Shown piece after piece: positions 3,803-28,566 of a stretch of 28,888 bases of DNA (positions are counted from its first letter, which is position 1; the number at the start of each line of letters is the position of its first letter). Made by a program: the position numbers and the translations under genes. Under the pieces are notes generated by a model. It did no database searches, was not told the origin of the DNA, and saw nothing but the letters and a program-made list of their open reading frames with translations. Origin of the DNA: an uncultured Candidatus Saccharibacteria bacterium (GTDB taxonomy: Bacteria > Patescibacteriota > Dojkabacteria > SC72); contig CAZNJV010000001.1 in assembly GCA_964573565.1 (NCBI GenBank), forward strand, positions 1-28,888, written 5' to 3'.

Positions 3803-3894
3803 AGTGGAATTTTAGCACAATTTGCAAAAGAGAATACTACAAGCCCTCTCATCTGTAACATTAGTCTTGTAATGTGGTAGAATATGATCCGATT

Positions 3895-4605
3895 ATGGGC
3901 AAGATCAAACAGAGAAATTGGTTGATAATTATCACCATTTTCTTGGTAATTGTATCTGGGGCAGGACTTTTTGTCTCAATACAACAAAAATTATCATTCA
4001 ACTCTTGTGCGTATGGAGAGAATGTATACAGAAGTGGTGAGCAGGTTCCAGAATTTAATGGAGAGCAGGAATGTACATGTAATTCTGATGGCTCCATAAA
4101 ATGTGGTACAGAATCCGATGGTGTCGTATATACTGGCTATTCTTCTTCCAATCTTAAGTTCTCCTACAGCTATATTAATCTCCTTGAGTCTAATACCATT
4201 CTAAATTCTGATGTAACACCTTTGGATGCTTCTTACAGTAATGGTATCTTAAAGGTATCTTTCGAACGAGACGTGTTATGCTCTTCAGATGAGATTGCAC
4301 CTGCACAATCAGGTTTTTACCAACTATCCTCTGATGCTTTGCGTCTTACAATAATGACAAATGTAGATACTTCAAAATATACCGCACCGTGCAAGATCGC
4401 CAACAGCTTTGAAATCTCTGACCCCAATATCTCTTTCTCTGATGATTTCCAGATATATTATGAATCTGAATCTGGAGAGTTCTTAAGCTTGGGTGCATGC
4501 GTTTACAAGGGTACTCTACACGGGGACCAAGATGTATTTAAAGACAAAGATACTACCTCTGTCTGCCTGTGCAATACAGGTACTGTTACCTGTAAGGATT
4601 TATAG
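3895..4605 (+). CDS. Membrane-anchored exported protein with two Cys-rich (Fn1/VWC-like) modules flanking a predicted beta-rich domain
   Basis: The ORF opens at GTG 3874; ATG 3895 is preferred because TG-G-TAGAAT lies just upstream. N-terminal TM. C-x21-C-x-C-x7-C and C-x21-C-x-C-x6-C modules. Confidence 0.75.
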   Translation: MGKIKQRNWLIIITIFLVIVSGAGLFVSIQQKLSFNSCAYGENVYRSGEQVPEFNGEQECTCNSDGSIKCGTESDGVVYTGYSSSNLKFSYSYINLLESNTILNSDVTPLDASYSNGILKVSFERDVLCSSDEIAPAQSGFYQLSSDALRLTIMTNVDTSKYTAPCKIANSFEISDPNISFSDDFQIYYESESGEFLSLGACVYKGTLHGDQDVFKDKDTTSVCLCNTGTVTCKDL

Positions 4606-5631
4606 TAATCCTAGATAGATTCCTAAGATACAGAAGACGAATGTAAATAGCCAGAATCTCATTGTTACTTTGTACTGTGGCCAACCTTTTGCTTGGAAGT
4701 GGTGATGGATTGGAGCTATGATGAAAACTCTTTTCTTAAGAAATCTCATACTTAATATCTGTATCGCACTAGACCCCATGATGATCCATGTCATTGCAGA
4801 CATTACGAGATATGGGATTAAGTTGTCTGTTACTATTCCAATGAAGAAAATTGCAAAACCAAGTGGCATTGCACCAGGGCCTCCATTCCAGAATCTTGCA
4901 GGAGGGATATTGAAATACAGGTCGATGATTTGTACCCCAAGTATTATGCACAGTATAGGGATAAATTGAGTTTGCCCTTGTATGAGAAGAAGTAGGATCA
5001 TTGAAAAATTTATAATTGCGAAGATACCCATCATTAATCCATCTAATCCATCGGTTAATTCTGCGGAATAGATAGCTAGCTGACTAATGAAACCAAGGAT
5101 TATTAAAACTAATGGTGTAATAGATATTGTTAAAATATTGAAGAAGGACAGAGATGTAAATTCCCCTGTATTGTAGAGCAAGAACATTATTCCAATATTC
5201 ATTAATGTTGCAAAGCCCAATTTCCCTAATCTCCATTCAAATCTCTCTTGGAAGGCTTTCATCTTCTCATTATTTTTAAAACCATTTGTGAAGATTACAA
5301 CATCTATGAATCCCCAGAGTCCATACAGTACAAATCCTAGCAAGAATACTTTGAGTACTGGTGTAAGGGGAACTGTTAATGCAATTATGATGGGCACTAC
5401 AATCCAGATTAAGATACCTCCCATATTAGGAGTCCCATTTGTTTCTGTTACTCTCATTATCCTTAAGAATAGGGAGTTATCTCCTTTCTCATCAGCACCG
5501 ATCTTGGATTTCTTAAGCCCACTGACTTGGTTAAATTTATACAGAATACTTATCATTATTGGGGCAAATACTGCGGAACAAACTACAGCAAGAAAGAGGT
5601 AGTTTAGAGAGGTTCTGAGAGTATCTATCAT
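4600..5631 (-). CDS. mraY: MraY-family phospho-MurNAc-pentapeptide transferase homologue with degenerate active site
   Basis: GTPNMGG, LTDGLDGL, FNxxPA and APIHHHF motifs, about 10 TM, located after ftsI. GxxDD is GFIDV and FMGDxG is WNGGPG. Confidence 0.85.
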   Translation of the reverse strand: MIDTLRTSLNYLFLAVVCSAVFAPIMISILYKFNQVSGLKKSKIGADEKGDNSLFLRIMRVTETNGTPNMGGILIWIVVPIIIALTVPLTPVLKVFLLGFVLYGLWGFIDVVIFTNGFKNNEKMKAFQERFEWRLGKLGFATLMNIGIMFLLYNTGEFTSLSFFNILTISITPLVLIILGFISQLAIYSAELTDGLDGLMMGIFAIINFSMILLLLIQGQTQFIPILCIILGVQIIDLYFNIPPARFWNGGPGAMPLGFAIFFIGIVTDNLIPYLVMSAMTWIIMGSSAIQILSMRFLKKRVFIIAPIHHHFQAKGWPQYKVTMRFWLFTFVFCILGIYLGLL

Positions 5632-5663: not shown

Positions 5664-7493
5664 TCAATTTGCTTTCTGTATTTCCAGATCATCCTTGATA
5701 GCTAGGAAAATGCTTCTCCATACAGGTACGGATGTGTACGATGCATAAGTACTAACCTGTGGCTCTTCAAGCTTTACTAGCATTACGAATTTGGGGTCAT
5801 CGTATGGAGCGTAACCTATTACGGTAGCATTACTAATATCATCCTCATAACCGGTTCCATCTGTCTTCGCAATCTGTGCAGTTCCTGTTTTTGCGGCAAT
5901 TTTGTAACTCTTTAGATCAGATGCCAATCCTCCGAGTGCGTTGTCTATGACACCTTGTGCAAGGTCTTTGCTTATGATATCTGCAGTCGTTTTTGATACT
6001 GGTGTTGATATTGTTTGTGGTTGTATAGTTATTGTCTCATTGTTATCGGCTATTTGTGAGATGATGTATGGTCTCATTCTAACTCCACCATTAGCTAATG
6101 TGCTAAATGCGGAGATTACTTGAAGAGAAGTCGCGGAGATTCCTTGCCCATATGAAGCTGTAATTTGATCTAGCTTTGTCCATTGCTCTAGTGGCTTCAT
6201 GTAGCTAGTACTTTCATCCTGCAAGCCAATACCAATGAATTGGCCTATACCAAATGCCTCTAAATATGAGTAGAACTCTGGAAGGGCGACAGATAGTCCT
6301 GCTTTTGCGGCGCATGGGTTATTTGATTTGGCAAATATTCCTGAAATATCTATCAATCCACTAGGTCTTTTATTCCATGTGTAGATATATCGTCCTTTGA
6401 GGTCTTCGTATCCTGTTTCTGCGTAAAGATCGAGTTTACCTGTACTATCGTTACAAGTATAGTCTTCCTTGATAGCACCTGAATCTAGAGCTATGGCTAA
6501 AGTGATTGGTTTTTGTACAGATCCATACTCATATACATCTGCTACTGCCCTATTTTTCAATATCCATGGCTCAGAGATTCTCCAGTACTCTGATGGATTG
6601 TATGTAGGATAGTTGGCCATCGCTAAAATCGCTCCTGTATGTGGATCCATGATTATGACTGAACCGCTCTTTGATCTCGTATCCTTAACCCCCTGTTCTA
6701 GCTGCTCTTCCACCTTTGCTTGCAAATTAGGATCTATTGTCAATGTAAAATCTTTTCCCTCTCTTGGCAGTATAGGGTCGTATTCGGATGTAAGGATAAC
6801 ATTTCCTGCAGAATCCTTTTCTTCGTATGTATATCCTTCACTTCCAGTTAAATCTCCAAAATAGTAACCTTGGATACCATACTGACCAAGATCATCACCC
6901 TGTGCATCCTGCCCTATGAAGCCTAAAACATGGGCTGCTAAGGTTCCATTTGGATACAATCTCTGTTCTTTGTTCTCAAAATACATACCAAAGCCCGCAG
7001 TGCCATCTCCAAATATCTCTTCTTGTGCTAATGCATTCTTTATATCCGTAGATACTCCTTTTGCTAGATTAACATATACAAAATCGTCTGTTATCTTTTC
7101 TTCTATGGTTGATTTCTCTACCCCTAGGAGACTGGCTACTTCGGTGATGAACTTATCCTTTTGTGAAAAGAATTTTTCTCTCTCAACTGTATCTGTGCTT
7201 AAGGTTGCATATATATCCCAAACGGGTTGATCAACTGCAAGTATTGTCCCATCTGTAGCAGTAATCTTACCTCTAGTAGCGGTTTGTACACCACTAGATT
7301 GGTATTGCTCGTTCGCCATGGCCTTTAATTCGTCAGAATCAACAATTTGCCATCGGAAAATCTGCAATACAACGAGGAAAGCTACAACAGAAATGATATA
7401 TCCAACCAAGTAGATATTGTTGTGTGGTTTTGAACTGCCACTCTTACTTCGATGTCCTTTTTGAGAAGTGTAGAGATGGTTTAGCTTAGCCAT
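5664..7493 (-). CDS. ftsI: Class B penicillin-binding protein FtsI/PBP3
   Basis: N-terminal TM, RGKITATDG, RLYPNG, SVQK (SxxK), SNN (SxN), KTGTAQ. dcw position after ftsL. Confidence 0.9.
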   Translation of the reverse strand: MAKLNHLYTSQKGHRSKSGSSKPHNNIYLVGYIISVVAFLVVLQIFRWQIVDSDELKAMANEQYQSSGVQTATRGKITATDGTILAVDQPVWDIYATLSTDTVEREKFFSQKDKFITEVASLLGVEKSTIEEKITDDFVYVNLAKGVSTDIKNALAQEEIFGDGTAGFGMYFENKEQRLYPNGTLAAHVLGFIGQDAQGDDLGQYGIQGYYFGDLTGSEGYTYEEKDSAGNVILTSEYDPILPREGKDFTLTIDPNLQAKVEEQLEQGVKDTRSKSGSVIIMDPHTGAILAMANYPTYNPSEYWRISEPWILKNRAVADVYEYGSVQKPITLAIALDSGAIKEDYTCNDSTGKLDLYAETGYEDLKGRYIYTWNKRPSGLIDISGIFAKSNNPCAAKAGLSVALPEFYSYLEAFGIGQFIGIGLQDESTSYMKPLEQWTKLDQITASYGQGISATSLQVISAFSTLANGGVRMRPYIISQIADNNETITIQPQTISTPVSKTTADIISKDLAQGVIDNALGGLASDLKSYKIAAKTGTAQIAKTDGTGYEDDISNATVIGYAPYDDPKFVMLVKLEEPQVSTYASYTSVPVWRSIFLAIKDDLEIQKAN

Positions 7494-7494
7494 T

Positions 7495-7797
7495 TTATTT
7501 TTCTGCCAAGAGTGCAGATTGCTCTAAATATATGATAGATTTACCACTTTGGGATCTAATATCAAGCTGTTTGTCGGCTAATTTTTTAATTACTGTTATG
7601 GAGCTTGTTTTTGCAACTTGCTCTTCCATGAGTCTATTTTCTTCGACTAAGAAATTTTTCTCTTTGTTTAAACTTTGTAATTCTGTTCCTAAGGGATTTA
7701 ACACTGCGTTAATTACTAACTGAGAAAGCACAAATGCTACCATGGAGAATCCAAAGATCATGACTGGGAGGTTTTTTCTGGTTTTGTAGGTTTTCAT
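7495..7797 (-). CDS. ftsL: FtsL-like cell division protein
   Basis: 100 aa with a short basic N-terminus, one TM and a coiled coil. Syntenic between rsmH and ftsI. Confidence 0.7.
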   Translation of the reverse strand: MKTYKTRKNLPVMIFGFSMVAFVLSQLVINAVLNPLGTELQSLNKEKNFLVEENRLMEEQVAKTSSITVIKKLADKQLDIRSQSGKSIIYLEQSALLAEK

Positions 7798-7798
7798 G

Positions 7799-7807
7799 TT
7801 GGGCAGT
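7799..7807 (-). promoter_or_regulatory. ACTGCCCAA start-proximal motif (ftsL)
   Basis: 1 nt upstream of ATG 7797; TAAAAT lies 4 nt upstream of the motif. Confidence 0.55.
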
Positions 7808-7814
7808 AGTTATT

Positions 7815-8693
7815 TTATTTTTTAATCAAACATCTCAACTTGGCGGAAGCGGAGCGAGAATTTTGCTCTAACTCTATGTCGGTTGGGGCAATTGGACTTT
7901 TGAAGAGCAATTCTCCTTCCCCGCTTCTAGCCTTGTCGCTAAAGTAATTCTTAACAATTCGATCTTCTAAAGAATGGAAGGTTATCACTGATAGTCTTCC
8001 ATCGGATTGTAAGAGCTCAAAAGATTTATCTAATGCCTCTTTGAGGCTTTCTAATTCATCATTTACCACGATCCGCAGAGCCTGAAAGACCCTGCGGGAA
8101 GGGTTCTTAAAAGAATTATTCGCCGGCACGACTTTATAGATAAGTCTTGTAAGATCTCCAACTGTTTTAATATTGCTAAGCTCTTTTTTAATTGCTTTGG
8201 CAATTTTCATTGAATATCTTTCTTCTCCGTATTCCAAGAATAGTCTTGCTAACTGTCTCTCATCTAATACTGTGAGAATATCTAGTGCTGTGACTCCTAA
8301 GTTAGTATTCATTCTCATATCTAGTGGTTCTTGATCTTCTAGGTAACTGAAACCTCTGTTGTGAGATTCTTCTAGCTGTCTAGATGAGAGTCCTAGATCC
8401 ATAAGGATACCGTTTGGAGTTTTACCAATCTCTGCTACGAGTTTGTCGATGTCTCTAAAGTTGGATTGCTTGAGGATCCAATTCTCTTGGAAATTGTAAT
8501 AGCTTTTGACAAATTCAATAGCGAAACTGTCTTGGTCGATACTTAGTAGTAATCCATCAGGTGAGAGCTGCTTTAGAATTGATTGACTGTGACCACCATC
8601 TCCTAACGTGCAATCGATATAGAAACCATGTGGATCTATATTTAATGAATCTATTGATTCGTTTAAGAGTACTGGTACGTGTATTTTATCCAT
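7815..8693 (-). CDS. rsmH: 16S rRNA (cytosine1402-N4)-methyltransferase RsmH (MraW)
   Basis: HVPVLL, DCTLGDGGHS, DLGLSSRQL, PLDMRM, FQALRIVVNDEL, ITFHSLEDRIVK. Confidence 0.97.
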   Translation of the reverse strand: MDKIHVPVLLNESIDSLNIDPHGFYIDCTLGDGGHSQSILKQLSPDGLLLSIDQDSFAIEFVKSYYNFQENWILKQSNFRDIDKLVAEIGKTPNGILMDLGLSSRQLEESHNRGFSYLEDQEPLDMRMNTNLGVTALDILTVLDERQLARLFLEYGEERYSMKIAKAIKKELSNIKTVGDLTRLIYKVVPANNSFKNPSRRVFQALRIVVNDELESLKEALDKSFELLQSDGRLSVITFHSLEDRIVKNYFSDKARSGEGELLFKSPIAPTDIELEQNSRSASAKLRCLIKK

Positions 8694-9129
8694 TGTTCTT
8701 TTCTGTCATTTTAGTCAATTCTTGTGCGATATCTTCTCCATGTTGTTTTAGGTATTGGAGTCTCTCTTCCCATTTGGATTTCTCCCATATTTCGATCCAA
8801 TTTACTAAACCGATGAAAACGATATCTTCTTTGAGTTGTGCATGATCAAACAATGCTTGTGGTATTATGAATCTTCCTTGCTTGTCTGTTTGAACTTCTG
8901 TTGCACTCCCTACCAGGAATCTACTTGTATCACGGATGTTTTTATTTATAAAAGAGCCATCTATTACCTCTTTGGCTATTTTTTGCCACATATCCTGATT
9001 TACTAGGATAAGTGCATCTTCGTAGCCTCTGGTGAGTATTATGTTCTCACCTAGTTCATTTCTGAACTTTTTGGGAAGTGATGTTCTTTTCTTATTGCTA
9101 AGCTTTCCGTGGTACTCTCCTATGAGCAT
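8686..9129 (-). CDS. mraZ: Division/cell wall cluster transcriptional repressor MraZ
   Basis: MLIGEY...K.R..LPKKFR, TRGYEDAL, DKQGRFIIP, IEIW. First gene of the dcw operon. Confidence 0.96.
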   Translation of the reverse strand: MLIGEYHGKLSNKKRTSLPKKFRNELGENIILTRGYEDALILVNQDMWQKIAKEVIDGSFINKNIRDTSRFLVGSATEVQTDKQGRFIIPQALFDHAQLKEDIVFIGLVNWIEIWEKSKWEERLQYLKQHGEDIAQELTKMTEKNNG

Positions 9130-9195: not shown

Positions 9196-9366
9196 GAAGA
9201 TTTAGTTATAGGATTGGATATAATATTCTAGGATATACAGATATATCGCTACTGAAATATATCTACCCTGTTGTGGGTGATATTGTGAACATGAACCGAT
9301 AGCAGAATTTATTGAAATATATATTTAAAGAAGTTAGTATAATTAAATAACTTGAGCCAAGTTTCT

Positions 9367-10737
9367 ATGAAAATCTATTTAAAAGATATAAAAGAGAGAT
9401 TCCCAGAGTTTGAGATTAGAAATTATGATGAGAATGCGTTTTTCACAGCCTTTAACCATGATTCGAGAACTATAAAGGATGGGGAGATCTTTATCCCTAT
9501 TGTTGGAGAAAAATTTGATGGCCATGATTTTATACTTCAGGCATTAAATGATGGTGCTGATATGGCCATATGTGAGGCGAAGAAATCTTTGTTAGTTAAA
9601 GATGCAATTAAGCCTGTGATTTTGGTTGATAGTGTTCGTGAGGGTCTACAGAAGATAATGTCTTTGTACACCTCCCATATCGATGCCAAGATTATGGGTA
9701 TAACAGGGAGTGCGGGTAAAACGACTACAAGAAAGATCCTTTCGACAATCTTGAGTTGCAATGGTTCTGTTTTGTCTGCAGAAGGTTCAAACATCAATAC
9801 TGTTTGGGGCAATGCGGTTTTACTTAGCAAATATACAGATGAAAAATATATAGTTTTGGAATGTGGTATGGATCATCCTGGTGAAATTGCTTGGCACATG
9901 AATTCAGAAGATCCTGATTTGGGGATATTGTTAAATGTAGGTTATGTACATGCCGAGGCTTTGGGTTCGATAGAGGGAGTGTATGAGGAGAAAAAGAACA
10001 TGGCCGATTATCTGGATCGTATGGGGAGACCTCTAATCCTGAATATAGATGATGAGAGGTTGCAAAGGATTGCCACTATATATAAATCGAAGCTTGTCAC
10101 CTATGGCTATAATGCGAATGCAGATTTTAGAATAGAATCATCTGTTTTGAGTCAGGATGGAATAGATTTTAAATTTGTGTATAAGGGAAATTCCTTTACT
10201 GGTCATTTGAAGGCCTATGGTGAGAAGCTTGTATATAATGTTGTAGCGGCCATAGCAGCAGCAGTGGAACTGGGAGTAAACATTGAAGATGCATTAGATG
10301 CACTAAAAGATTTCGAACCAGAAAGTGGTCGTTTTGAGATAATTCCACTTAGAAGTGGTAGCTTTATCATCAATGACGCATATAACGCGAATCCGGTTTC
10401 TATGGAAATGTCGCTTAATACATTCAACAAGTTGTATTCTAAGGAAGAATATAAGCGAATAGTAATATTGGGAGACATGAAAGAACTTGGAGATGTGTCT
10501 TCTAAACAGCATAAAGAGCTTGGAGAATTAGTAAACAAGATGGAATTTGATGATGTGTATTTCCTAGGAGAGTATTTTAAAGATTTCGGTATTGGCGAAG
10601 AGATCAGGTCGATTCCCGAAGCAGTAAGCATCATTAAGGAGAATTTAGAGAATGAGAAAAGAAAACTAGCTATTCTATGTAAGGGTAGTCACAGCACGGG
10701 TATATTTGAAATCCCAGATCTTGTGAAGAGTTTATAA
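9367..10737 (+). CDS. murF: MurF-type Mur ligase (UDP-MurNAc-tripeptide:D-Ala-D-Ala ligase family)
   Basis: DSR, GEKFDGHDF, GITGSAGKTTT, LECGMDHPGEI, NDAYNANPVSM, ILGDMKELG. The ORF opens at TTG 9352; ATG 9367 is preferred. Confidence 0.88.
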   Translation: MKIYLKDIKERFPEFEIRNYDENAFFTAFNHDSRTIKDGEIFIPIVGEKFDGHDFILQALNDGADMAICEAKKSLLVKDAIKPVILVDSVREGLQKIMSLYTSHIDAKIMGITGSAGKTTTRKILSTILSCNGSVLSAEGSNINTVWGNAVLLSKYTDEKYIVLECGMDHPGEIAWHMNSEDPDLGILLNVGYVHAEALGSIEGVYEEKKNMADYLDRMGRPLILNIDDERLQRIATIYKSKLVTYGYNANADFRIESSVLSQDGIDFKFVYKGNSFTGHLKAYGEKLVYNVVAAIAAAVELGVNIEDALDALKDFEPESGRFEIIPLRSGSFIINDAYNANPVSMEMSLNTFNKLYSKEEYKRIVILGDMKELGDVSSKQHKELGELVNKMEFDDVYFLGEYFKDFGIGEEIRSIPEAVSIIKENLENEKRKLAILCKGSHSTGIFEIPDLVKSL

Positions 10738-11898
10738 CTCAATTTCTTTTAATATTGTCTTAACAGCATCTGTTCTAAATATCTTTTCGATCTCCCTTTT
10801 ATCTACATCTTTTGTTTTCTGTAGGAATTTCTCTAACCTTAGCAACAAACAACTTGATGTGAGTTCTCCCTCCTGAATTATCTCTGCTAAACCTAAGTTA
10901 ACTAATACCGCTGCATTTTTGTATTGCTCATTATGTGTGACCCAAGGAATAGGTATAAATATGGAAGGTATCTGTAACACTCCCATCTCGTATACCGTAT
11001 TGGCTCCTGCTCTACCAACATATAGATCGATATTGTGTAAAAGATAGCCTAAATCCTTAGCTTGAATAAATGTAACAGGTAAGAATCTTGATCGAAGGTC
11101 TTTCTCTAAGTTCTCTTTGTACCCAATTAGAATTTTGTAATCATTGAAAACCTTGTTATCCCCTGTTTGAAGAATGATTTGGTATTTTTGTAACAACATC
11201 TTAAGAGATTCTTTTACAGTTTCGTTTATTAGGTGTGAACCTAGCCCTCCACCAGATATGTAGATAATGGGATATCTATCTCTGTTGCTTACCATCCCCT
11301 TTATACTCTCCGCGAAGTTCCCTTGTGCCTTGGTTTCAAATATCTCTGGTCTGACAAGATTTCCTGTTAATAGGGCTTTACCCTTCGGGAAATATTTAAA
11401 AGAAGAAGGGAAGGATATGAAAATTTTCTCTGCTAACTTCCCTACTATCTTGTTTGTTAAGCCAACTGTTGCAGTTTGCTCATGAAGATATATCTTAGAT
11501 TTAAAAAGTTTGGCAATCAAACAAACACTTACAGTTACATAACCACCCGTTGATATTATTATTTCAGGTTTGAATTTCTTAACAATTTTGTAGGAATCCA
11601 TAAGCCCGAGAATTGTTCTAAAAAGGAGTTTGATGGTATTGAAACTAAGAGATCGTTGTAGTTTTCCAGCACGTATGAATTTACATTCGAAGCCCTTTCC
11701 TTTCATCAACTTTTGCTCGAGAGAGTTTCCAGGTTTCTCACCTTCCATACCAAGATCACCACCGATATAGAGAAAATGGCTTTTATCTAACACATATCTC
11801 TCTTCAAGGCTTGATATGACAGAAAGTGCTGCAGAGATATGGCCTCCAGATCCACCTCCTGTTACGATTATTTTTTTACTTAACTGCTTTTTGCTCAT
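10732..11898 (-). CDS. murG: MurG GlcNAc transferase
   Basis: GGGSGGH, STGGYV, HEQ, GNLVR, GRAGANTVYE, EQYKNA. Downstream of ftsW. Confidence 0.9.
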   Translation of the reverse strand: MSKKQLSKKIIVTGGGSGGHISAALSVISSLEERYVLDKSHFLYIGGDLGMEGEKPGNSLEQKLMKGKGFECKFIRAGKLQRSLSFNTIKLLFRTILGLMDSYKIVKKFKPEIIISTGGYVTVSVCLIAKLFKSKIYLHEQTATVGLTNKIVGKLAEKIFISFPSSFKYFPKGKALLTGNLVRPEIFETKAQGNFAESIKGMVSNRDRYPIIYISGGGLGSHLINETVKESLKMLLQKYQIILQTGDNKVFNDYKILIGYKENLEKDLRSRFLPVTFIQAKDLGYLLHNIDLYVGRAGANTVYEMGVLQIPSIFIPIPWVTHNEQYKNAAVLVNLGLAEIIQEGELTSSCLLLRLEKFLQKTKDVDKREIEKIFRTDAVKTILKEIEL

Positions 11899-13090
11899 TC
11901 TGAGTGTTTGAGTATTTACTGATATTTAGTAGTATACCAATTCCTATGAGGGATACGATAGTGCTAGATCCACCATAGCTAACTAGAGGTATAGGCATTC
12001 CAGTGAGAGGAATGATACCAACATTTGCCCCTATATTTAAAAGTGTCTGAATAACAAGCCATACTGTAATGCCTGCTGCCAACAGTTTCCCTTGTTTATC
12101 CGGTGCTCCAAGTGCAACTTTGAGTCCTCTCCAAAGGAACCCTATCCATGCAATTATGATTAATGTACCTCCCAAGAATCCAAGCTCTTCAAGAATTACG
12201 GCAAATATTGAGTCTGTGAATGCAGTATTCTCTACCAGATATCCAAATCGTTGTCTTGATTGTCCAAATCCTGTACCAAAGAATCCTCCTGATCCTATTC
12301 CTATGAGAATTTGTTGCATCTGATACCCAGAGCCTTGTGGATCCGCCACTTTGCCGGTAAATAGCAAGCTTAAGAAGGTTGTGACCCTCTGCAATCTGTA
12401 TGGCTCTAGTATTGCCGCTATACCAGCTACTGGTATAAGTAATGAAAGTACGGAAAAAGAAGCGAGGGTATGGATTCTGTCCTCTCCAGCCATTAAGAAC
12501 ATGATGAAGCATGTAATACAAACGACCATTGTTGTACCGAGGTCTGGTTCTAGAAGTATAAGTAAGGCGACTACACCGAGAATGGCTATGAATCCCAAGA
12601 GATTCTTTATGAACCCTTCCCTAATTGCAGATTTGAAATCTTTGTATTTGTAATCTCGCTTTGCTAACCATTGTGCAAGGTACATGATCAATGTGAGTTT
12701 GGCAAACTCGGCGGGTTGTATTTTAGGCAATGACCCTAGAGAGAACCATCTTTTAGAACCGTTAGTTGCTTCTCCTAATATTAATACTGCAGCTAGGAGT
12801 AATACTGTGATTACCAGTGCTGGGAATGCTAATTTCAGTATCTTTCTGTAATCCCAGAAATATACTATTACTGCAGGAACTGCCCCTACTAGTAACCAAA
12901 CAATTTGGGATTTAAGGAAGTAGAATTGATCATTGAAGACTGTATTTGCTTGGTAAACACTGGCATCAAAGATCATAATAGCCCCGAATATCGCCATTAA
13001 TACGCAGAATATTAAAAGGAAAGAATCTGGTTTGTGTCCGGAGATTACTTTCTTGAGTTTTCTTTTTGGGGCATGGTTTTGATTGGACAT
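11876..13090 (-). CDS. ftsW: SEDS-family peptidoglycan glycosyltransferase FtsW
   Basis: KRWF...IQPAEFAKL, EPDLGT, GYQ..Q...GSGG, TDSIFAVILEELG (catalytic Asp), PLVSYGGSS. Upstream of murG. Confidence 0.93.
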   Translation of the reverse strand: MSNQNHAPKRKLKKVISGHKPDSFLLIFCVLMAIFGAIMIFDASVYQANTVFNDQFYFLKSQIVWLLVGAVPAVIVYFWDYRKILKLAFPALVITVLLLAAVLILGEATNGSKRWFSLGSLPKIQPAEFAKLTLIMYLAQWLAKRDYKYKDFKSAIREGFIKNLLGFIAILGVVALLILLEPDLGTTMVVCITCFIMFLMAGEDRIHTLASFSVLSLLIPVAGIAAILEPYRLQRVTTFLSLLFTGKVADPQGSGYQMQQILIGIGSGGFFGTGFGQSRQRFGYLVENTAFTDSIFAVILEELGFLGGTLIIIAWIGFLWRGLKVALGAPDKQGKLLAAGITVWLVIQTLLNIGANVGIIPLTGMPIPLVSYGGSSTIVSLIGIGILLNISKYSNTQNEQKAVK

Positions 13091-15680: not shown

Positions 15681-16088
15681 ATGAAGAATTTCTTAAAATC
15701 TCTAATCGCTTATTTTGCATTGGTATTCCTAGCGGTTAGCCTTTTTGATAAAGGTATTGTTTTGCCAGAAAGTGGGTTATACTTCGCAGCTACATTATTG
15801 ATTCTTACACTTACTATCCTTATTGCAGAGCCATTACTAAAATTCCTTACAGTTAGAGTCAACTTCATCACAATGTTCTTAATGTCATCCCTTTTACTAA
15901 TTGGGGTCTTTTTTCTTCTGAAGATATTTATGACAGATTTCTACATTAATGAATATACATTTGAAGAGATGACTCTGGGGACACTTAAGGTTACAAGTTT
16001 TGTCGTAAAACCGACATTAACAATCATTTCTGCATCTCTAACGTCGGCACTCTTCTGTGCTACCTTCAGAGGATTGGATAGTGTATAA
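15681..16088 (+). CDS. Small 4-TM membrane protein, phage-holin-4/YvlD-like
   Basis: Four hydrophobic helices and an IAEPLLKFLTVRVNFITM segment resembling the family P-I-L-x-L-L-x-L-P pattern. TAATG overlap with secG. Confidence 0.6.
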   Translation: MKNFLKSLIAYFALVFLAVSLFDKGIVLPESGLYFAATLLILTLTILIAEPLLKFLTVRVNFITMFLMSSLLLIGVFFLLKIFMTDFYINEYTFEEMTLGTLKVTSFVVKPTLTIISASLTSALFCATFRGLDSV

Positions 16089-18223: not shown

Positions 18224-19309
18224 CTACTTTTTTGAAGTAAGTGTAACGTCTACAGCAGGTTTGGATTCTTTACCGTTCGCTTCATCAGGATCAAACTTCT
18301 TGTAGTCTTTTAGGAAGTCAATCTTATTTATTACAACTTTCTCTTCTTTTTGCTCAACTGGTTCTGCTTTTTCTTCTTTTTTACCCTCGGCCATTAGCTT
18401 CTCTCTGAGAGTGACCTCTTGCTTCTTTTCTGTATTCTTTTGGAACTGTTTAGCGATCTTCTCCTCTGCTCTATGTGTAACCTCTTTGATTCGTTGAGTC
18501 TTGCTAAAAATGCCAACCACAATACCTAGTACAAATGCACAGAAAGCGATGAGTATGTATGTCTGATTATTCACAATCCAGTCCTTCACTACAGTTAATG
18601 ATAGTTGGCTAAGATCAAGTAGATACTCTCCCTTATTATTAGTACTGCTATTAACATCTAAGGTAAATTTGGTTACTTCAGAAAAGTTACTAGCATAGCC
18701 ATACCTTCTGATATATCCTGTTATTGAATAGATGTCGTTAGGTAAAGTTGTACGACTGAAATTCATACTCCACTTACCATCCCCATCAATTAACCCTGTC
18801 TGTGAAGACACCTCCGTACCACTAGAAAGAAGCATTATGATCTCAGAATTTGCCAATCCAGTCCCAGAAATGGTGACTGTATCTGCAGTAATAGTTGGTG
18901 TATTAAGAATCGGAGGACGAGGAATTATAACGATGGAAGTACTGTAAATTTGTGTGGCTGCATTTGCATCTTGATATTTAAATTCAAGTGTATGCTTACC
19001 TATGCTTAGTGCAGGAAAACTGTATGGTGAAGTTATGTCTACAAATCCTTTACTATCTATCTCCAATTGGACGATTGCTCCACTTTGTGATGGATTTGTA
19101 AATGTAATTATTGTACTAGGGTTATCTGTTTGATCAGGAATATCCAATCCGAGAGGATTTTCCTTTGTCGAAGTTACGGGTGTTGATGTCGTAGTGGATT
19201 CTGTTGTCCCTACGAGTTGTTGCACGGTTGTGTCTTCTTGTGCAAAAGCATGACTTGCAAAAATTAATGGGATTACAGCTGTTGCTACTAGGATTTTGAG
19301 ATATTTCAT
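18224..19309 (-). CDS. Type I membrane surface protein with probable Ig-like domains and a charged cytoplasmic tail
   Basis: Signal peptide ending AFA, Thr-rich linker, SIGKHTLEF and TISGTG...DGDGKWS segments typical of bacterial Ig-like folds, TM YILIAFCAFVLGIVVGIF, K/E-rich tail. Confidence 0.75.
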   Translation of the reverse strand: MKYLKILVATAVIPLIFASHAFAQEDTTVQQLVGTTESTTTSTPVTSTKENPLGLDIPDQTDNPSTIITFTNPSQSGAIVQLEIDSKGFVDITSPYSFPALSIGKHTLEFKYQDANAATQIYSTSIVIIPRPPILNTPTITADTVTISGTGLANSEIIMLLSSGTEVSSQTGLIDGDGKWSMNFSRTTLPNDIYSITGYIRRYGYASNFSEVTKFTLDVNSSTNNKGEYLLDLSQLSLTVVKDWIVNNQTYILIAFCAFVLGIVVGIFSKTQRIKEVTHRAEEKIAKQFQKNTEKKQEVTLREKLMAEGKKEEKAEPVEQKEEKVVINKIDFLKDYKKFDPDEANGKESKPAVDVTLTSKK

Positions 19310-26889: not shown

Positions 26890-27567
26890 TTATTCTTTGA
26901 TTTCTATTCCTCCAAAGATTGCAGTTCCAGTTATCTCTAACTTTGGACCTTTTGCCTCTCTTTGGTTGAATTTGTTATCCCATCCACCGAGTATTCCAAC
27001 TCCATCTGATACTACATTGCAATCTTTTGGAAGTAATACTTCGATTCCGCCAAATGCGGTATTTAATACCAATTTTGCTCCTCCTTTATCAATTATGGAG
27101 TCTCTTAAATCTAACTTCGCACCACCAAATGCCACGGTTATATCTCCGCCTTTAAATGCTTTAGAATCCATATTCTTATCTATCCCCCAGAAAACTACAG
27201 TCTCAGAGACTCTGTCTCCGCCGTAGTACTTCTTACCTTCTGTCATATGTGGTGCATCTTTTCTAAATATCATTGTTAAACCAATTACTATGATGATCAT
27301 TGGCCATAGCATTGCGAAGAAGCTGATATTGAAAAGATGTGTTAGAAGAAACAATGTTCCTAATGAAGTAAGTACAATCCCCAGTGAGATATTTTTATCT
27401 ACCAACATCTTAATACCTAAACCTAAAAGAAGTGCTGGCCAGAGGAGTCCAATTATATCCCCTGTTGTCATGTTTACCAGCGATAGTACACCGGTTGTAT
27501 CTAGCAAGAATATTATACCGAAGGTTATTAATATCCCTCCGATTATTAACTTCGCGTCTGTTTTCAT
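26890..27567 (-). CDS. LiaF-like membrane protein (DUF5668-type TM repeats plus DUF2154-type C-domain)
   Basis: G..LI..G..FLL...LWP twice. C-terminal VAFGGAKLDLR, TAFGGIEVLLP and AIFGGIEI repeats. Confidence 0.8.
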   Translation of the reverse strand: MKTDAKLIIGGILITFGIIFLLDTTGVLSLVNMTTGDIIGLLWPALLLGLGIKMLVDKNISLGIVLTSLGTLFLLTHLFNISFFAMLWPMIIIVIGLTMIFRKDAPHMTEGKKYYGGDRVSETVVFWGIDKNMDSKAFKGGDITVAFGGAKLDLRDSIIDKGGAKLVLNTAFGGIEVLLPKDCNVVSDGVGILGGWDNKFNQREAKGPKLEITGTAIFGGIEIKE

Positions 27568-27585
27568 TTTATATATTTATATAAT

Positions 27586-28566
27586 TTAAATACGTTCAAT
27601 TGTAAGAGAACCTACTCCCACTTTTGCTTCAATAGTTAGTTTCTTTGTAGCGGTATCATAATCAGTAGTTTGGTATGTTCCATTTTGCCCAACTCCTTCT
27701 ATTTTGTTTGTGTCGAGGCTAATTTCTCCGACTCCTAGGTTATACACCAAGTAAACACCAATATTTTGTGGCAAGGTCAATGTTACATCTCCTGCACCAA
27801 TTTCGAGATTGATACTTTCAGGTAAAGATTTCTCCCAGAGTGTCATATCTAGATCCCCTGCACCAACCTGTGCAAATACTGATTTAAGAACAGTCTCATC
27901 CAAATCTACAGTGGCCTTTCCTGCCCCTATCGTCATATCCAATGATGTTGGGAGTGTATTTTGTCCAAGGGTAAGGTCATATGTTGGGGTAACAAATCTC
28001 CAAAAACCAAGATTTCTAACCTCTCTGTTTCTAAAATCTATATTTAAAATTCCTTCGTTACTTTGTGCTTCTATTTGTGGGATATCACCGTCATACTGGT
28101 ATGTAGTTTTTGAAAGTAGGTGATATGCTTGGGCTTCGTCATTGAGTGTTAATTCTGATGCTCCAATGAATATGTCCACAGTTCTATTCGTAATGTCACT
28201 AAAATCTTCTGACAATACATATTCTTCTTGTGTTTGACTCTCTGTGTTCATAGCATAATTGCCAGAAAGGAAATTAGAAACACTTTCAGATATTAAAGGG
28301 ACCTTCTTCTCTACTGCAAAGTAATATGACATAACTCCTGCGGCAAGCATAAACAAGGTGTATACCACTGTCATTATGATATTCCCAATCTTTGTTTTGG
28401 GTAAGATCATCTTCAGACCAGCAAGGATTAAGATAATGGGCCAGAATCTAAGAAGATATAGCCAGATACTCCAAGGAACTACATTGGTGGTATTAAGCAA
28501 GAATAGCGTTCCTAGCAATACAAGAAAAATTGCTCCTGTATAGTCTCGTGTTTCTTTGTTTTCCAT
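27586..28566 (-). CDS. LiaF/LiaG-like protein (DUF5668-type TM plus toast-rack-like beta repeat domain)
   Basis: GAIFLVLLGTLFLL...FWPIILILAG. Repeated IGAG/VGAG/LGVG units in the exported domain. Confidence 0.75.
   Translation of the reverse strand: MENKETRDYTGAIFLVLLGTLFLLNTTNVVPWSIWLYLLRFWPIILILAGLKMILPKTKIGNIIMTVVYTLFMLAAGVMSYYFAVEKKVPLISESVSNFLSGNYAMNTESQTQEEYVLSEDFSDITNRTVDIFIGASELTLNDEAQAYHLLSKTTYQYDGDIPQIEAQSNEGILNIDFRNREVRNLGFWRFVTPTYDLTLGQNTLPTSLDMTIGAGKATVDLDETVLKSVFAQVGAGDLDMTLWEKSLPESINLEIGAGDVTLTLPQNIGVYLVYNLGVGEISLDTNKIEGVGQNGTYQTTDYDTATKKLTIEAKVGVGSLTIERI

Follow-up and report, generated by a model that had tools for sequence, protein, structure and literature searches.

A divergent MraY of the Dojkabacteria with glycine in place of the Mg2+-binding aspartate and a candidate metal-binding glutamate on transmembrane helix 5

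The stretch of DNA analyzed here (the window) comprises 28,888 nucleotides (contig CAZNJV010000001.1 of assembly GCA_964573565.1, positions 1 to 28,888 of the forward strand) from an organism deposited as an uncultured Candidatus Saccharibacteria bacterium and placed by GTDB in the Dojkabacteria (Patescibacteriota); the names of close homologues likewise assign it to Candidatus Dojkabacteria (candidate division WS6, Patescibacteria). On its minus strand, downstream of ftsI, lies a gene whose product is, judged by its sequence, a divergent homologue of MraY. MraY, the phospho-MurNAc-pentapeptide translocase that produces the cell-wall precursor lipid I, is an essential enzyme, a major antibiotic target and the textbook case of a protein with "three invariant catalytic aspartates." The protein encoded in the window keeps the first of these residues, carries Val at the position of the second and Gly at that of the third, and has a Glu at the position of an Asn that serves as a metal ligand in a related enzyme. 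The gene and the codons in question are the following (Ec, Escherichia coli; Aa, Aquifex aeolicus).

4600..5631, minus strand: variant mraY, an intact ATG-to-TAA open reading frame (ORF) of 343 amino acids with a predicted full ten-helix PNPT fold
5425..5442, minus strand: T64 to N69 of TNGTPNMGG, with T64 in place of Aa K70 and N69 in place of Aa T75
5302..5304, minus strand: D110 (codon GAT), the kept first Asp of the DD pair (Ec D115, Aa D117)
5299..5301, minus strand: V111 (codon GTT), in place of the second Asp of the DD pair (Ec D116, Aa D118)
5059..5061, minus strand: E191 (codon GAA), in place of the second Asn of NxxN (Aa N190, DPAGT1 N185); candidate metal carboxylate
5041..5052, minus strand: D194-G-L-D197, the kept DGxDG motif (Aa D193/D196), invariant in the homologue alignments
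4879..4881, minus strand: G251 (codon GGC), in place of the Mg2+-binding Asp (Ec D267, Aa D265, DPAGT1 D252)
4699..4707, minus strand: H309-H310-H311, the kept MraY HHH motif in loop E

Residue equivalences were derived from HMMER alignments to the structurally characterized MraY proteins of E. coli (8G01), C. bolteae (5JNQ) and A. aeolicus (4J72), all of which agree. The motifs read GTPNMGG (residues 66-72), GFIDV (107-111), YSAELTDGLDG (188-198), FNIPPARFWNGGPGA (240-254) and PIHHH (307-311), and the fourth of these, the third of the aspartate-bearing motifs, aligns to the solved structures without a gap. An earlier sequence-only reading of this DNA had described the gene as intact and in its normal place after ftsI, had quoted these motifs together with the retained GTPxMGG, DGLDG and HHH, and had assigned Val and Gly to the second and third aspartate positions; all of this agrees with our alignments. 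The same reading recorded the string YSAE, but overlooked that the change from Asn to Glu within it is the counterpart of the change from Asp to Gly. In the NxxNxxDGxDG motif both Asp residues are retained and both Asn residues are changed (Y188 and E191), at the end of transmembrane helix 3 (TM3) only D110 of the DD pair is left, and G250, next to the substituted position, corresponds to Aa G264. We considered whether a misalignment might conceal an aspartate; this was rejected, since three HMMER alignments, two MAFFT alignments and one hidden Markov model (HMM) alignment with DPAGT1 placed motifs 2 and 3 in one and the same register. No alternative acid occurs in residues 240-268 around the TM8 motif, nor was an acidic residue found within reach of the V111 or G251 regions. 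The HHH motif, which distinguishes MraY from WecA and GPT, is present as PIHHHF (307-312) and kept in 120 of 121 sequences, and T64 and N69 are invariant in 121 of 121 close sequences.

Membership of the PNPT superfamily is seen at the level of profiles and predicted structure. The protein passes the gathering threshold of PF00953 (Glycos_transf_4; 34.5 bits against a cutoff of 27, residues 97-267), and phmmer comparisons with the E. coli, C. bolteae and A. aeolicus MraY structures gave E-values of 8e-20 to 7e-12. An AlphaFold2 model built from an 89-sequence alignment (pLDDT 91.4, pTM 0.91) points to the ten-helix PNPT fold, with a predicted helix at residues 251-267 (TM8) that begins at G251. 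The top 23 Foldseek matches of this model are all MraY chains (TM-score 0.68-0.84); DPAGT1 (TM-score about 0.7) ranks after them, and no other fold appears at E < 0.1. Like bacterial MraY (8G01, 4J72, 5JNQ; TM-score 0.75-0.84), the window protein is of similar length, is encoded in a dcw operon and keeps GTPxMGG, the first Asp of the DD pair, DGxDG, HHH and the frame FN.PPA..(F/W).G; unlike these enzymes, to which it is 22-24% identical, it has T64, N69, V111, Y188, E191 and G251. Human DPAGT1/GPT (6FM9, 5O5E, 6BW5) shares the PNPT superfamily fold, but differs from the window protein in using UDP-GlcNAc and dolichyl phosphate as substrates, in possessing a large CL9 domain, in lacking the HHH loop and in having the canonical Asn and Asp metal ligands.

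To assess how widely the substitutions occur, relatives were gathered by a search of 1.84 billion cluster representatives and by a scan of GTDB species genomes. The D-V pair, E191 and G251 are present without exception in the 120 nearest database homologues (67-96% identity). Across 27 species-level genomes (L001-L027), all four Val codons (GTT, GTA, GTC, GTG) are used at V111, all four Gly codons at G251, and both GAA and GAG at E191. Purifying selection on the variant mraY is strong: dN/dS values (Nei-Gojobori, NG86) range from 0.015 to 0.1, the least saturated pair (L006/L008) has a dN of 0.020 and a dS of 0.77 (omega 0.026), and comparison of the window gene with that of L001 gave a pN of 0.031 and a pS of 0.70. 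As the sequence-only reading had pointed out, V111 (GTT) and G251 (GGC) are each a single nucleotide away from an Asp codon, as might be seen in a decaying pseudogene or after an error of sequencing or assembly. However, the invariance of these residues in all 120 homologues, together with the differing synonymous codons in the 27 genomes, speaks against chance or error and lends further weight to the argument which that reading had already made against a sequencing error. Identical residues are found in more than 250 independent database sequences, the ORF is intact with a conserved length of 342-343 amino acids among close homologues, and dN/dS values of about 0.02-0.1 show none of the neutral decay (dN/dS near 1) that would have spoken for a pseudogene. 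We therefore rejected the artefact or pseudogene explanation, to which we attach practically no probability.

Fixation of the variant is not confined to the immediate relatives of the window. All Dojkabacteria loci of the sets L001-L040 (among them the complete genome CP129470.1), L096 and L165-L168 carry Yxx[E/D] in place of NxxN and Gly, Ala or Ser at the TM8 position, and the variant is fixed across nearly all Dojkabacteria sampled; four species (L161-L164) carry a canonical mraY. In a distance tree calculated without the motif columns and without sequence P0266, the 63 representatives of the variant type group in a single clade. An apparent polyphyly in our first neighbor-joining tree of MraY was discarded, because it was due to the independent P0266 lineage and to two embedded "EE" sequences. 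States of the DD pair were read from ungapped strings; MAFFT --auto had shifted the DD column by one in the alignment of 407 sequences described below. Without exception, the variant-type sequences examined have D or E at the first position of the pair. At the second, the window sub-clade (at least 54% identity) has Val, and deeper branches of the Dojkabacteria have G, D, A, E, S, N or K. The deep Dojkabacteria already possess the Glu/Gly exchange and still have K and T/S at the positions of Aa K70 and T75. The distribution of the DD states suggests an order of events in which the exchange of Asn for Glu and of Asp for a small residue came first and the second Asp of the DD pair was relaxed thereafter. 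The title "uncultured Candidatus Saccharibacteria bacterium" is attached to many contigs whose gene content clearly marks them as Dojkabacteria (L001, L003, L005 and others), and some such contigs bear the names Starkeya, Micavibrio or Gammaproteobacteria; the taxon labels of these series of metagenome-assembled genomes are unreliable.

The positions equivalent to 191 and 251 vary together. Among 407 non-identical full-length relatives, 261 have an acid at position 191 and a non-acid at 251, and about 139 show the reverse; acids at both positions were found in two and at neither in three, so that exactly one of the two positions is acidic in 400 of about 405 relatives. P0266, which lies outside the Dojkabacteria and adjoins the canonical Gracilibacteria MraY of L080 in the neighbor-joining tree, has undergone an independent exchange of N for D and of D for T (KAVD...MGT). 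These two positions have changed together in another way in the MraY of the Paceibacteria/Parcubacteria type, which is likewise encoded in a Patescibacteria dcw context (there mraY-ftsW-murG): its TM8 Asp is replaced by Glu and its TM5 Asn by Gly or Ser (YxGG ... MGETG), and it differs further from the window protein in the replacement of K70 by E and of T75 by R. In the loci concerned (L041-L079; Paceibacteria, Parcubacteria and Kaiserbacteria; MraY at about 10001-11050), the TM8 motif reads MGETG, MTETG or MSETG, [YFW][SA][GS][GS] stands for NxxN, the GTPxMGG loop reads E..TPRMGG, and Kaiserbacteria-like members have ND for DD. We also noticed three sequences (P0164, P0193, P0249) with Asn for the TM8 Asp (LGN, MGN and AGN) and no acid at the NxxN position, which makes them natural counterparts of the hyperactive D252N mutant of DPAGT1 discussed below. 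Searches of the literature returned no prior description of active-site variation in the MraY of the Candidate Phyla Radiation (CPR) or of the Dojkabacteria.

What the two covarying positions do can be read from related enzymes. In an HMM alignment with the human DPAGT1 sequence, which agrees with all 15 residue numbers checked from PMC6218659, Asn185, the latter of the two Asn residues of NAIN, corresponds to E191, and Asp252 corresponds to G251. In the DPAGT1-UDP-GlcNAc complex the Mg2+ ion is held by two pyrophosphate oxygens, Asn185, Asp252 and two water molecules (PMC6218659; see also PMC10258461). N190 and G264 are both among the residues lining the uridine-adjacent pocket of A. aeolicus MraY, and mureidomycin reaches N190 and the Mg2+ ligand D265 with one and the same amine (PMC6606608). 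The DD pair of DPAGT1, in turn, touches neither the metal nor the substrate; its Asp116 N-caps TMH8 and thereby stabilizes Asp252, and the D115 and D116 mutants retain at least 10% activity (PMC6218659). Replacement of Asp252 by Ala leaves 7% activity, and its replacement by Asn raises activity to five-fold above wild type (PMC6218659). The sequence-only reading had called all three aspartates essential. This agrees with reports that mutation of them inactivates bacterial MraY (PMC6606608, PMC4790310), but it is too strong a word for the DD pair across the superfamily in view of the DPAGT1 mutants.

On the basis of these data, we consider it probable that the variant is a working lipid I synthase with a rewired active site, in which the metal-binding carboxylate has moved from TM8 to TM5. 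In a canonical PNPT enzyme the catalytic Mg2+ is held between the Asn at the cytoplasmic end of TM5 (the second Asn of NxxNxxDGxDG) and the Asp at the N-terminus of TM8. With Asp replaced by Gly (G251) and Asn by Glu (E191), one carboxylate would still be offered to the metal, now from the opposite wall of the site; from homology and covariation we infer that E191 ligates Mg2+. The second Asp of the DD pair, which caps TM8 and positions the TM8 Asp in DPAGT1, would have lost its task once that Asp was gone, and its constraint may have been relaxed for this reason: it would then have been free to vary, drifting in the deep Dojkabacteria and becoming fixed as Val in the sub-clade of the window. 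D110, D194/D197 and the HHH motif would remain for the handling of the lipid phosphate and the UDP-MurNAc-peptide, and lipid I would be the product. The sequence-only reading had offered, as one of two options, a transferase with altered metal or substrate chemistry; the part concerning the metal comes close to the evidence and can be refined to the E191/G251 exchange.

Several observations weigh against a relocated carboxylate in a functional lipid I synthase. The DPAGT1 N185D variant, with two carboxylates at the site, is nearly dead (0.7% activity; PMC6218659), although this result also fits a site that wants one carboxylate. The amide of Asn185 has been proposed to form a hydrogen bond with the lipid phosphate (PMC6218659), a bond that a Glu cannot copy unless it is protonated, and hence catalysis may differ or be slow. 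Two sequences of the variant clade carry both acids (P0304, P0329) and three relatives carry neither. The independent events are few (one at the base of the Dojkabacteria, P0266, and the Paceibacteria with a change of a different kind), and the covariation is therefore no statistical proof. The window protein scores below the NCBIfam mraY equivalog cutoff (TIGR00445; 111.9 bits against 192.05). Finally, the replacement of K70 by T and of T75 by N in the window sub-clade leaves room for altered substrate handling.

This last point bears on the possibility that the variant is an active enzyme with a changed specificity, be it for another divalent metal, for a different nucleotide-linked precursor (e.g., one with an unusual peptide stem) or for a different polyprenyl phosphate, and that T64, N69, Y188, E191, G251 and P252 form a remodelled pocket. 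K70 and T75 belong to the residues of the uridine and uridine-adjacent pockets of A. aeolicus MraY (PMC6606608), and several residues of these pockets have changed together and are invariant in the sub-clade; moreover, the MraY proteins of the CPR as a group vary unusually in their motifs. Yet the HHH loop, DGxDG and the GTPxMGG backbone are kept, and the K and T/S residues retained by the deep Dojkabacteria show the Glu/Gly exchange to be independent of the other pocket changes. The surrounding genes, listed below, bear on the same question.

3874..4605, plus strand: Cys-rich predicted membrane or secreted protein of 243 amino acids, convergent with mraY (6-bp overlap)
5664..7493, minus strand: ftsI (class B penicillin-binding protein; Pfam Transpeptidase 222 bits plus PBP_dimer), directly upstream of mraY in the same operon
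7495-7797, minus strand: ftsL-like gene, assigned by position and by homologues in other loci
7815-8693, minus strand: rsmH (Pfam MraW 306 bits)
8686-9129, minus strand: mraZ (Pfam MraZ 92 bits), head of the dcw operon
9352..10737, plus strand: murF (TIGR01143 315 bits against a cutoff of 288.6), for the enzyme that makes UDP-MurNAc-pentapeptide, the MraY substrate
10732-11898, minus strand: murG, for the lipid I consumer (Pfam GT28 N- and C-terminal domains; TIGR01133 213 bits)
11876-13090, minus strand: ftsW (Pfam FTSW_RODA_SPOVE 319 bits; TIGR02614 314 bits)

The variant gene hence resides in a dcw cluster with ftsI, murF, murG and ftsW, and this synteny is kept in L001-L027. The MurF protein encoded in the window scores above the cutoff for its family, and nothing unusual marks murG, ftsW or ftsI, which argues against a changed specificity. 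In a rough MraY tree the canonical sequence closest to the variant clade is P0133, which leads to the four WS6/Dojkabacteria species L161-L164, whose loci are collinear with the window (pyk, cmk, ftsW, murG, murF, mraZ, rsmH, ftsL, ftsI, the Cys-rich gene, tatD and rsmI). These organisms belong to the same class, and their MraY presumably has the same role, but it differs from that of the window in its canonical motifs (DD, NAFN, MGD) and in its location: mraY is positioned between murG and murF, and no mraY separates ftsI (end at 11800) from the Cys-rich gene (start at 11801-11805). The arrangement is reversed in the window and in about 30 further genomes, which have the variant mraY after ftsI; in the window murG and murF overlap by 6 bases, so that the slot of the canonical mraY is empty there. 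Neighboring proteins of L161-L164 are 46-64% identical to those of the window, MraY only 30-34%; this canonical MraY, too, falls below the TIGR00445 cutoff (144.9 bits). In a neighbor-joining tree of concatenated FtsI, RsmH and MraZ, L161-L164 are nested inside the variant-bearing clade: they group with L165, L025 and L166 (bootstrap 1.0) within a shallow clade set apart from the deep Dojkabacteria (bootstrap 1.0), and their sister L166 carries a D-V variant mraY after ftsI.

Within the collinear loci compared, variant and canonical mraY are mutually exclusive at the two slots; the evidence on a second copy covers the window and ±10 kb around about 90 loci. An HMM search of all ORFs found no second MraY-like ORF in the window or within ±10 kb of 80 loci, the P0133-query loci contained no variant-bearing assembly, and the scan with the variant query turned up no canonical-bearing assembly. 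The simplest reading is a xenologous displacement, in which an incoming canonical mraY took over and the variant was deleted; an ancient duplication with differential loss would be less parsimonious as the origin of the canonical copy because of the nesting in the species tree. One form or the other at each locus is what functionally equivalent enzymes would be expected to show, and a scaffold would not; within the loci compared the two proteins appear to be interchangeable. That a canonical MraY could be swapped in while murG, ftsW and ftsI stayed argues for the same product. On the other side, the canonical mraY of L161-L164 comes with a murF whose product is 26% identical to that of the window, as would fit a matched pair of enzymes. 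Weighing both sides, we regard a changed specificity as unlikely.

The same comparison bears on two further explanations. According to the first, which the sequence-only reading had put forward, the protein is a dead pseudo-enzyme kept as a divisome scaffold or as a binder of the lipid carrier or precursor, with lipid I scavenged or supplied by some other protein. In its favor, two of the three Asp residues whose mutation inactivates bacterial MraY are missing, as noted above, the protein scores under the TIGR00445 cutoff, and Patescibacteria are reduced and host-dependent. However, a compensating carboxylate at the second metal-ligand position covaries with the loss of the Asp, all other active-site residues are invariant over a class-level radiation down to 33% identity, MurF, MurG and FtsW need a source of lipid I, and the variant was lost exactly where a canonical mraY was gained. 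Given these data and the purifying selection, we find the pseudo-enzyme very improbable. According to the second explanation, the variant is a divergent paralogue with a regulatory or accessory role beside a canonical mraY elsewhere in the genome. The placement of the P0133 group nearest to the variant clade could hint at an old duplication, but in none of the loci examined (the window, about 30 variant loci, four canonical loci) are both slots occupied, the variant and P0133 scans gave no shared assembly, and, given the nesting in the species tree, the canonical copy would have to have been lost independently at least five times. A second canonical mraY had been suggested as something to look for in the genome; within ±10 kb there is one MraY ORF per locus, and we hold the paralogue to be very improbable. 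A working lipid I synthase with a relocated carboxylate is therefore the reading that we retain.

Further features of these loci deserve mention. The block between murG and mraZ of L161 (4165-8201; also in L162-L164) is absent from the window and comprises the canonical mraY, the divergent murF (211 bits), a gene for an EstV-like alpha/beta-hydrolase and a gene for an Erm-type 23S rRNA methyltransferase (NF000499, 187 bits against a cutoff of 212). Several of the variant-bearing loci (L002, L006, L012, L020, L023-L026) have no detected murF homologue between murG and mraZ, including L002, whose MraY is 86% identical to that of the window; hence the location of murF varies within the clade. In L168 (labelled Nomurabacteria, with Dojkabacteria-like neighbors) the variant mraY (7061-8107) lies upstream of mraZ and not after ftsI. 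The Cys-rich gene is syntenic in all close Dojkabacteria, including those without the variant mraY, and marks the downstream edge of the mraY slot; its product has an N-terminal hydrophobic helix and weak VWC/TILa-like matches, and evolves fast (23-38% identity where its neighbors show 50-70%). Elsewhere in the window, two tandem LiaF-like membrane proteins (26890-28566, minus strand; LiaF-TM plus LiaF-like C-terminal domain) belong to a family of the cell-wall-active antibiotic response, and two ORFs, 18224-19309 (minus strand, 361 amino acids) and 15681-16088 (plus strand, 135 amino acids), matched no Pfam or NCBIfam family, apart from a weak Big_6 match on the longer one.

Homologues of the window protein bear the NCBI name "hypothetical protein" because the NCBI equivalog model misses the variants, and metabolic reconstructions can consequently deny, wrongly, that Dojkabacteria synthesize lipid I. 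A class-wide natural variant with one of the three Asp residues and a compensating Glu offers a ready means of telling the metal-holding residues from the structural ones. More tentatively, and with a confidence that falls somewhat short of an even balance, the MraY of the Dojkabacteria may represent a second catalytic architecture of the PNPT superfamily, in which the carboxylate is supplied by a Glu of TM5 instead of by TM8 and the "DDD" set is cut to a single Asp. In that case the model of invariant aspartates in MraY catalysis would be lineage-specific, and the contact site for tunicamycin and mureidomycin (N190/D265) would be naturally different in a whole bacterial class. Patescibacteria would then hold at least two alternative solutions (Glu on TM5 with Gly on TM8, and Gly on TM5 with Glu on TM8), and rewiring of the MraY active site appears to be widespread among them.

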